Virus record (IMG/VR): IMGVR_UViG_2877962823_000010
Reading direction: 5' to 3' (one strand)
Source of the DNA: a virus
Lineage: Duplodnaviria > Heunggongvirae > Uroviricota > Caudoviricetes
Length of the DNA: 64,000 nt
Made by a program: the position numbers. Below, one piece after another: positions 15,001-18,000 of the stretch; the stretch's first letter is position 1, and the number at the start of each line of letters is the position of its first letter.

Positions 15001-18000
15001 GTTGTTCCGTTGTGGGGAAAGTTATCGCCAGCCAATGGCCTGAAGAGACGTTTGGGTAAAGAGGATAGATGGAGTTTAATGGCCATGAGTATCAAGCGGT
15101 CAAAAAGAAGTTCATCTATTCATTGAAAGCATAAGGCCATCTGAGTATATCCGTAATGATCTGGATATTGTCTATAACATCAATGACCGGACGATAGATA
15201 TCGGTGAGCAGCGTCCTGTATGGCAGGGTGAGGCAGGTGAAAAAACGTCCTGCCATCAACAAGAATCAAGTGCATCCGCTCTCTGGACAGATGGAAAATT
15301 TATTGGATGCAAAAAGATATGAAATAACACCTGTATAGCACGGAGCTTTCTCTGACCGATGCACTTGAAGTTGTTAGGGCTGACCCAGCCTGCTGTTTCT
15401 TTAGGTAAGAGAAAAGAGATTTAGGAGATGAAAGGTCGCAGAGGTGCGGCCTTTTTTATTGAGAGTGGATCTTGAACGGAAATTCTCAAGACTTGAGTCT
15501 TGCATGCAAATCAATTCCTGGATAAACTCGATCTGAGTCAATAACTTAGAGAGAGAGCAAATGGCAAAGTCAAACGTTAGCGTGCAGGCATTCAAGGACT
15601 TCCTTGAAGAGCTTATGTCGCTGAACATAATGAAGGAGGCCACCGCTCGAAATTTAAAAAACTCATCCGCTCGCCTCTTAACGGTAGTCCAAGAAGAGGA
15701 AATGGGTGATGTTACTCAGCTTGATGTGAATGAGCTTGCCGAGCGATACATCAACGCAACTGAGCCGAAGCCTAGCGACAGCAGCATTACTGCATATAAA
15801 AGCCGCATGGAAAGTGCAATCAAAAAGTTTGTAGCTTTCCAGTCTGGTGAAGAAATCCCATACACTCCGATTGACAAAGAATCCAGTGAGGAAAAAGATT
15901 TGACTGGCGAACCAACAAAAGTCGAAGGCAAGGCTAATGCACTTCATACCTATGATCTTCCAGTAGTTCTTCGACCTGAATCAGGGGTTACAGTAACGAT
16001 TAAAGGCATTCCTAACGATATCACAAACGAAGAAGCCGAACGCATCTCTTCAATTCTGAAGGTTTACGTTCGGCCTCAATAATGCAAAAGCATTCAGCAC
16101 AATGTCCAACTCCCCAGTCCGACATTGATGCTGTTTAACCAGAGCCTCCAAAAGGAGCCCTTGTTAAGGTACACAATATTTGCGATGTAACCTTAGCGCG
16201 TCTGGTACATTTTTTCAAGCGGTTGTAGGGCTGCCGCCAATATGAGAAAACACAGATGTCTACATACAATTTGAATGACCAATTCGATCGAGAAGTTCAT
16301 GTGAATGCCTATGAACGGATAAGGCATGGAAATCTTGAACATGTGTGTGAGCATTATCGCTCAAGGCCACACCGCTAATCATCAACCCGGCCTCCATGCC
16401 GGGTTTTCTTTTCCTCTCGCCCAAAAAAACACATAACCAATTGTATTTATTGGAAAATAAATAGATACAACTCACTAAACAACGCAATTCTGATCTCTCC
16501 TTACATCGCCGAGGCAATACACCCACGCTAAAAAACAATACTATTAAATACAAAGCGTTGTAAAAAAACGCCCCGTTTTAGAACAAATTGTATTGACCAA
16601 GTGAAGTACATATCGTACTATTTAACCATCAGCAGGACGCTGGAAGCCAAATGGAACAGACTGGCAGGCTCTTTAAACAACGTCGACTCTCGACTACGTG
16701 GCTGAAAAGCCAGATCACCCAACCACATAAGCTGTGGGATGCAATGCCGAAGCAACCGTCTCAGGAGGAGCTTCGAGATTGCATCGCCAAAGTTTATTCG
16801 GGAGGAATCTATGTCCAGAAAAACAGAATTTAAAGGCACCGCAGCTTCTCGCCGTAGAGCTCGTCGCGCAAACCTGCAAAGTCAGGAGGCGATTAGCTCC
16901 GACAAACTACACAGGCCAACCCCATCACGAGTGGTCTTACAATGCAAACGCAAACCAGCAATGAGAGCAGAAGTAATAACACTGACAACGTTGACCAGAA
17001 AATATGAAGGCTCAACTTGTCTTCCAAATGTAGCTCTTTACGCGGCAGGCTACCGTAAATCCAAACAACTGACAGCAAGATGACTTGTGTTGGTCGCCAG
17101 AAAATGAAATTAGGCAGCAAACCACTTATTTGAGGTGATATATGGAATTTCATGAAAGTGCGATTTGTGATTTTCGCGCTAACGCAAATTCAGTAAAACC
17201 ACAGCCAATTGCAGTTCTTTTTAAAACAATGGGTGCGTGGGCTGTTTTATGCTTCGCCGCTGACGACACTGACGCAAGAATGGCAATAGGACAAGAGATG
17301 GAGATGGACCCGACAAACGATGAATTCATAATTTATGGCGCTCCATCTAATTACTTACTTGATACCTGCAACATTTACAACAAGGCTGCCTGATGGTGGC
17401 CTTTATTTTTGGCATAAACAACAGAATAAACACAGCACTGTGTATTCATTCCAACGAGTGAATACACGGAGCAATGTCGCTCGTAACTAAACAGGAGCCG
17501 ACTTGTTCTGATTATTGGAAATCTTCTTTGCCCTCCAATGTGAGGGCGATTTTTTATCTGTGAGGATATGAACAGATGTCAAACATCAAAAAATACATCA
17601 TTGATTACGACTGGAAAGCATCAATAGAAATTGAAATCGACCATGACGTAATGACAGAGGAAAAACTTCACCAGATTAATAATTTCTGGTCAGACTCTGA
17701 ATACCGACTCAATAAACACGGCTCTTTATTAAATGCTGTATTAATCATGCTGGCGCAACATGCTCTGCTTATAGCAATTTCAAGCGACTTAAATGCATAT
17801 GGTGTTGTGTGTGAGTTCGACTGGAATGATGGAAATGGTCAGGAAGGATGGCCTCCAATGGATGGTAGCGAAGGAATAAGAATTACCGATATCGATACAT
17901 CAGGAATATTTGATTCAGATGATATGACTATCAAAGCCGCCTGAGCGCGGCGTTACCGCATACCAATAACGCTTCACTCGAGGCGTTTTTCGTTATGTAT

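Follow-up and report, generated by a model that had tools for sequence, protein, structure and literature searches.

What lies between the antiterminator gene N and cIII in the early-left operon of a Shiga toxin (Stx) phage, and could any of it counter host defences? The locus that raises this question stands in a viral stretch of 64,000 nucleotides (nt), IMG/VR record IMGVR_UViG_2877962823_000010, which in its full length is here called the window. A sequence-only reading of the window had described two open reading frames (ORFs) in the N-cIII interval, one of 83 amino acids (aa) at 17142..17393 and one of 122 aa at 17576..17944, and both are present exactly there. That reading took the larger product for an unnamed acidic protein with a possible anti-restriction or anti-defence function, and the spacer between the genes for a plain hairpin and terminator. 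Our analysis leads mainly to a correction of annotation: lambda Ea10 accounts for the 'unnamed acidic protein', and the small RNA (sRNA) PreS for the 'hairpin and terminator'. Every element of the interval is already present in public annotation or in recent literature, and no new kind of system is found there.

The ea10 gene and the PreS unit

The 122-aa ORF (17576..17944, + strand) matches the Pfam family DUF2528 (PF10800) over profile positions 1-104 of 104 with a score of 158.8 bits, the gathering threshold being 22 (E 7e-47), and the gene is annotated as ea10 in Enterobacteria phage VT2-Sakai. Its product has the same length as lambda Ea10 (lambdap45) and agrees with it at 121 of 122 residues, V51L being the only difference. 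The gene also occupies the same place as lambda ea10 directly upstream of cIII, with the same flanking spacer and terminators, and these flanks are 98.6% identical to those of lambda. By these matches the 122-aa ORF is the orthologue of lambda ea10. The earlier statement that neither protein matches a nameable family is therefore incorrect for the 122-aa protein, which is Ea10 of the DUF2528 family, and holds for the 83-aa protein, which has no Pfam match. Regarding the role of ea10, the gene has been scored as non-essential by CRISPR interference (CRISPRi), and there are viable lambda strains that carry either a replacement of sieB-ea10 or an IS10 insertion in ea10. Ea10 is also the abundant early protein that was formerly taken for Kil. 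Its role has been described as 'not fully understood' (bioRxiv 10.1101/2024.10.31.621285).

The 182-nt spacer that precedes ea10 had been read as a hairpin with a 9-bp stem (17440..17467) followed by a terminator. The hairpin is indeed present and is stronger than described, with 14 contiguous pairs (17438-17451 with 17456-17469) and a folding energy for the element at 17438..17469 (+ strand) of -20.2 kcal/mol (z = -6.7). What had been missed is that the last paired base of this hairpin is the 5' nucleotide of PreS (LPR1), a published Hfq-dependent sRNA of 88 nt that maps to 17469..17556 (+ strand) when its ends are set by the published primers P1103/P1104. PreS of the window is identical to that of lambda at 87 of 88 nt, and the sole change, at 17538, lies in the terminator loop (A here, G in lambda). 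Its 3' end coincides with the terminator tL2a (17528..17556, + strand), where an 8-bp stem (17528-17549) is followed by TTTTTT, giving the GC-rich hairpin and U-tail of an Hfq-type 3' end. In lambda, Hfq binds PreS/LPR1, an sRNA of ~88 nt that is processed to ~68 nt, that is located between ral and ea10, and that has tL2a as its 3' end; it is a product of the lytic cycle that activates translation of dnaN, represses alaS and helps lytic growth (bioRxiv 10.1101/2024.10.31.621285). The copy in the window has the same terminator hairpin, U-tail and place 5' of ea10 as lambda PreS, and the seed region mutated in the M1 mutant is identical. It differs in that the upstream gene is the 83-aa ORF (ORF1 hereafter) instead of ral. 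At the sequence level, the spacer encodes PreS with tL2a as its 3' end. An Rfam scan returned the cIII thermoregulator as its only real match, and Rfam holds no PreS family.

Comparison with other phages shows that the hairpin and PreS travel together. The spacer is present in 331 phage records, and the points where homology breaks off cluster at the start of the spacer, at ~17434 and at ~17555. Six phages whose flanking genes differ (loci including L002, L012, L015, L016 and L017) have an almost invariant hairpin-PreS unit; the hairpin stem is unchanged in five of them and has lost 2 nt from its 5' arm in the sixth. Upstream of the unit the neighbour may be ral, ORF1, an HK97 gp45-like gene or HK620-like genes, downstream it may be ea10, a 322-aa gene or kil, and the unit is kept even where ea10 is replaced (mEp234, HK629). 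As judged from these alignments, the mosaic junctions coincide with terminators, and the description of hairpin and PreS as a near-invariant unit between such junctions goes beyond public annotation. The hairpin would be part of the PreS module and is possibly a processing signal, since the position of the PreS 5' end at the foot of the hairpin suggests that this end is produced by processing.

Two public records that match this part of the operon look like lambda DNA contamination or mislabelling. One is GenBank MW057783.1, named 'Campylobacter phage CJLB-4' (48,361 bp), which matches the lambda ral-ea10 spacer at 98.3%. The other is a protein named 'Kil [Parabacteroides goldsteinii]' (P0120), which combines Ea10 C-terminal sequence with a Kil domain (Pfam PF10800 and PF06301).

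The 83-aa gene in the ral slot

ORF1 (17142..17393, + strand) is identical at the protein level to VT2-Sakai H0090, also called VT2-Sap20, and the gene is also present in Gally, JEP4 and many Stx phages. The product is acidic (pI 4.24). Searches with it gave no match in Pfam (E<=1), NCBIfam, PADLOC or the PDB sequences and left phrog_2471 as the only match, and a literature search on H0090, VT2-Sap20 and phrog_2471 returned nothing relevant. The family is small, comprising 19 clusters in 5.8 billion proteins, and a search of the ORF1 profile against 1.84 billion representatives recovered only this family and two artefacts. The latter, proteins of 3126 aa (P0124; E 1e-35) and 1357 aa (P0125; E 1e-13), were rejected as relatives because their tandem repeats sum weak matches. 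Members occur in prophages of Escherichia, Enterobacter, Citrobacter and Klebsiella, so that the family is confined to the Enterobacteriaceae, and in 56 phage records that include HK106, HK633, mEp234 and two P22-like Salmonella phages. Relative to the Citrobacter and Klebsiella homologues the ratio of nonsynonymous to synonymous substitution (dN/dS) is 0.08-0.15 at a dS of ~2, and the Shine-Dalgarno sequence is conserved among homologues. By this comparative evidence ORF1 is a real gene under purifying selection.

In most contexts (Citrobacter, Klebsiella, mEp234) ORF1 comes directly after N, at a distance of 29-58 nt. An exception is a Citrobacter prophage (L003) where ORF1 follows a small DUF3927 gene that has its own terminator, and in Salmonella phage S9-5 ORF1 follows sieB. 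In the window ORF1 stands directly after N, without the intervening terminator tL1 of lambda, and before the spacer that carries PreS and leads to ea10. The earlier assignment of ORF1 to the ral/sieB position is borne out, given that the same slot holds sieB-orf28-ral in lambda. In other phages the slot contains a 156-aa HK97 gp45-like gene (933W-type phages and BP-4795) or HK620-like genes (HK629). These contexts characterise ORF1, on present sampling, as a narrowly distributed accessory early gene in the variable ral slot.

There is no ral in the window, and the relation of ORF1 to lambda Ral (PF11058) is one of place and not of protein sequence. Both are small early proteins encoded in the same slot of the pL operon, and the two genes have in common their last 17 nt (encoding ..NKAA-stop) together with the terminator over the stop codon. 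In contrast, ORF1 has 83 aa versus 66 aa in Ral and lacks the cysteine-rich N-terminal part of Ral (CGQFKRCNGCKLQSEC), there is no Pfam match to Ral at E<=1, and hhalign of the ORF1 profile with Ral gives a probability of 0.2%. Comparison of ORF1 with Ea10 by hhalign likewise revealed no relation.

Operon layout, terminators and expected transcription

A 911-nt stretch around the two genes is 100% identical to VT2-Sakai and to many other Stx phages, and by this identity the window is a Stx prophage of the VT2-Sakai/Sp5 type. The annotation of VT2-Sakai reads N, H0090 (hypothetical), ea10 and cIII over the same interval; its features were put on window coordinates via locus L001 with an offset of +13089. 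Among 5426 complete E. coli genomes, 2260 contain at least part of the 911-nt stretch and 250 contain at least 80% of it. Between 16.5 and 18.7 kb all elements lie on the + strand in the order pL, nutL, N, ORF1, the spacer, ea10 and cIII, after which come kil, gam, bet and exo. The promoter pL (TTGACC-17-TACTAT; 16593..16621) was recovered by a promoter scan and corresponds to the 'putative major leftward promoter' of VT2-Sakai, and nutL (16667..16707) was mapped over from the VT2-Sakai annotation, with boxA-like and boxB-like sequences visible in it. The N gene (90 aa; 16811..17083) is N in VT2-Sakai and matches Pfam N_peptide (E 3.4e-32), the cIII gene (18017..18181) matches Pfam Lambda_CIII (E 1.5e-30), and the cIII thermoregulator RNA element (18004..18062) matches Rfam RF01804 (88.5 bits, E 9e-22). 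The Pfam matches of N and cIII, together with that to VT2-Sakai, confirm the earlier placement of the interval in a lambdoid pL operon. When compared with lambda (NC_001416) by blastn, the window shows 98.6% identity from 17377 to the end of the lambda segment compared, and this junction falls inside the last 17 nt of ORF1, which are the last 17 nt of lambda ral. Sequence identity and transcription logic together make it very probable that the interval belongs to the pL (early-left) operon as its promoter-proximal part, that a non-lambda cassette is here joined to lambda DNA, and that the segment is an ordinary N-antiterminated one.

A terminator scan of the + strand detected a stem-loop followed by a T-run at 17382-17403, 17528-17549 and 17968-17987, which recovers all three terminators (near 17384..17410, 17530..17556 and 17969..17993) that had been said to bracket the genes. 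Overall there are five terminator-like sites in the 2-kb region as compared with 1.9 +/- 1.6 in shuffled sequences, and there is none on the + strand between pL and 17382. The intrinsic terminator over the ORF1 stop codon (17382..17410, + strand; scan and fold) has the sequence found at the 3' end of ral in lambda, and the lambda homology starts here; the mEp234 annotation lists it as a rho-independent terminator. Its hairpin and T-run are kept in the Citrobacter and Klebsiella homologues (L003-L006) through wobble changes and with differing terminal amino acids. The hairpin around the ea10 stop codon (17936..17951, + strand; fold) is small, has no T-run, and is kept in lambda with two changes nearby. 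An intrinsic terminator between ea10 and cIII (17968..17993, + strand; scan and fold) is identical in lambda. It probably follows tL2a as a further terminator of the tL2 cluster of lambda, and a literature search on tL2a/tL2b returned nothing relevant to the naming of the terminator 3' of ea10. The spacer, ea10-stop and terminator structures are ~99% conserved in lambda, and the structures of the region exceed chance. A further terminator-like hairpin (GCCCGGC...GCGGGC with a T-rich tail) lies at 18318-18335 on the + strand, just 3' of kil at the start of gam, and may be another member of the tL2 cluster.

The two genes also resemble each other at their 3' ends. As the earlier reading had noted, each finishes with an Ala-Ala-stop inside a stem-loop; specifically, both end with GCN-GCC-TGA within the hairpin, and in ORF1, Ral and Ea10 the Ala codons constitute the 5' arm of the stop-codon hairpin. 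Four early proteins end in -KAA, namely the Cro-like protein (14073-14459, - strand; ..HKAA), ORF1 (..NKAA), Ea10 (..IKAA) and lambda Ral (..NKAA). A common C-terminal KAA degron was considered and rejected, as the ends vary within both families (KAA, QAA, QPA and QAV in one; IKAA, IKIID and EEVS in the other). Because the protein ends vary in both families, it is the RNA hairpin rather than a degron that seems to be conserved, at least for ORF1, where the DNA of homologues was compared.

The arrangement suggests the following scheme of expression. Transcription would start at pL (~16628), cross nutL and N, and run on into ORF1, with the first intrinsic terminator being the one at the ORF1 stop codon (17382-17410). 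N and ORF1 would then be carried on one N-independent immediate-early transcript, and ORF1 is probably an immediate-early gene because the stretch from pL to its stop codon is free of predicted intrinsic terminators. This apparent presence of H0090 on the immediate-early N transcript is likewise an addition to public annotation. N-modified RNA polymerase would pass the ORF1-stop terminator, tL2a and the terminator after ea10 and so reach cIII, kil, gam, bet and exo. In this scheme the terminators would both impose N-dependence and serve as module junctions, with tL2a doubling as the 3' end of PreS.

Possible functions of ORF1, Ea10 and a neighbouring gene

The acidity of Ea10 was the main ground for the anti-restriction proposal. 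Ea10 has a pI of 4.28 and a net charge of -14, and its last third is acidic as claimed, with 10 D/E versus 2 K/R. The first third, however, is similarly acidic with 9 D/E, and members of the DUF2528 family are uniformly acidic (pI 4.05-4.77, net charge -9 to -20). An AlphaFold2 (AF2) model built from a 43-sequence alignment has a predicted local distance difference test (pLDDT) score of 94.5 and predicts that Ea10 folds as a compact alpha/beta domain in which two strands at the N-terminus are followed by helices and then by a third strand (order beta-beta-alpha-alpha-alpha-alpha-beta). The invariant DUF2528 motif EGWPxMDGSxGI, the most conserved of the family, is located in the acidic third. 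Because this motif lies there and the model is confident, the acidic third appears to be a folded conserved part of the protein and not an acidic tail, which speaks against the DNA-mimic-like character that had been ascribed to it. Structure prediction, which the sequence-only reading had put forward as a check, yielded an Ea10 model that matched no known mimic or anti-restriction fold. Specifically, Foldseek of the model against the PDB gave nothing significant and against BFVD gave one viral protein (E 2e-5, 25% identity), a PDB sequence search with Ea10 gave nothing, and PADLOC had no family for ORF1, Ea10 or H0093, a gene upstream of pL.

DUF2528 genes are not limited to the pL operons of lambdoid phages: Mu-like prophages of Salmonella (L007, L008), Oceanobacter (L009) and Serratia (L010) have them as well, between a MuB-like AAA ATPase and Gam/GemA/Mor. 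By its gene neighbourhoods the family is thus common to two unrelated temperate phage types, and its occurrence in both lambdoid and Mu-like early regions is another point beyond public annotation. No cIII was seen in the Mu-like loci examined, and cIII is not adjacent in some of the lambdoid DUF2528 loci, so DUF2528 would be an early accessory gene that is not tied to cIII. Most likely ORF1 and Ea10 would both be dispensable early host-directed accessory factors, acting in takeover or counter-defence, and not replication or regulatory proteins. Several points weigh against this interpretation and the scheme of expression given above. The functional statement on ORF1 and Ea10 is weak, with no match to an anti-defence or defence family and no solved relative for either protein. 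The AF2 model of ORF1, built from a 10-sequence alignment, has a pLDDT of 52 and is unreliable, and for this reason it is unfit for a fold search. The immediate-early status of ORF1 depends on terminator prediction, and Rho-dependent termination might occur between the genes N and ORF1. Finally, the processing role of the spacer hairpin derives from geometry, and the PreS paper is silent on the origin of the 5' end.

A more specific proposal is that ORF1 is an analogue of Ral, that Ea10 is a DNA mimic which blocks Type I restriction-modification (R-M) or other nucleases, or both. We regard this as unlikely, with position and acidity being what makes an anti-restriction or anti-defence role possible for either protein. 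ORF1 sits exactly in the ral slot of a window without ral, with the last 17 nt and the terminator of ral, and it apparently shares the earliest transcript with N. ORF1 comes after sieB in one P22-like Salmonella phage, which is the place of ral in P22, and phage phi330, which is identical in this region, is reported to be without an anti-R-M gene recognised by DefenseFinder. For Ea10, the uniform acidity of DUF2528 and its location beside Gam, in the company of early host-directed genes, in lambdoid and Mu-like phages point the same way. However, ORF1 shows no sequence or profile relation to Ral, neither Pfam nor PHROGs returned a match to the ArdA, Ocr, KlcA or Lar families, and restriction alleviation in lambda has been mapped to ral itself and is not known to involve ea10. 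Ea10 does share an acidic composition with DNA mimics such as Ocr and ArdA, a weak and non-specific likeness given that acidity is widespread among phage early proteins, but it resembles no known mimic in sequence or fold, and its acidic part is folded and motif-bearing. If either protein did act in counter-defence, the accessory hot spot after N would gain a new member and a lambda gene would gain a function. A combined version, in which ORF1 is a new immediate-early counter-defence protein that serves as an alternative to Ral in phages without ral or a recognised anti-R-M gene, and in which Ea10/DUF2528 is an SPFH-like acidic early protein that neutralises a host factor, seems to us rather improbable; were its second half true, the role of an abundant lambda protein would be settled.

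The SPFH likeness invoked there comes from a structure search with the Ea10 model in which 17 of the 60 matches listed were chains of the SPFH superfamily or related to it (stomatin, QmcA, HflK, flotillin, prohibitin, erlin, major vault protein, FliL), and the order of elements in Ea10 matches that of the SPFH core. This raises the idea of Ea10 as a soluble, minimal SPFH (band-7)-like domain whose action would disturb an SPFH assembly of the host (HflKC-FtsH, QmcA or YqiK, for example), with a functional link to the FtsH inhibitor cIII, whose gene adjoins ea10 in lambda and in the window. We consider this very improbable, as Foldseek against the PDB finds nothing, hhalign of the Ea10 profile with E. 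coli HflC and HflK gives a probability of <1%, there is no match to Pfam PF01145, and DUF2528 also occurs in Mu-like loci and in some lambdoid loci where cIII is not its neighbour. Moreover, the SPFH domains of HflKC are periplasmic, and the Ea10 model is compact, without the long C-terminal helix of HflC, HflK, stomatin and QmcA. There is even less to recommend the legacy annotation of Ea10 as a single-stranded-DNA-binding protein (SSB) that aids Red recombination or replication. Many records do carry the label ssb or single-stranded DNA-binding protein, and ea10 lies upstream of gam-bet-exo, but there is no match to a Pfam SSB or OB-fold family, the confident model has three strands and several helices in place of an OB barrel, and a pI of 4.3 with a net charge of -14 is unfavourable for DNA binding. 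The family also occurs beside unrelated recombination modules and in Mu-like prophages, and the current NCBI name is only 'DUF2528 family protein'. The 'Ssb' label is thus unsupported, there being neither an OB fold nor an SSB signal, and this lack of support from the predicted fold is itself new relative to public annotation. As for ORF1, its small size, its lack of a named family and its location at the place of lambda sieB might point to a chance ORF or to a sieB-like superinfection-exclusion gene expressed in the lysogen. Both possibilities are extremely unlikely in view of the low dN/dS and the conserved ribosome-binding site. ORF1 has the same strand as pL, comes immediately after N and lacks a promoter that would exceed chance, because of which a repressed lysogen should not express it; the protein looks soluble and acidic, unlike the membrane-associated SieB, and S9-5 has ORF1 beside an annotated superinfection exclusion gene. 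Relative to these alternatives we favour the broader view of ORF1 and Ea10 as early host-directed accessory factors.

Outside the pL operon, the interval between cI and pL contains H0093 (173 aa, phrog_2602; 15561-16082) and H0092 (a small ORF at 16256-16378), which together occupy the slot of rexA/rexB in lambda. H0093 has no Pfam match above threshold and no match in NCBIfam or PADLOC, and from its position it is a candidate for a lysogen-expressed gene.

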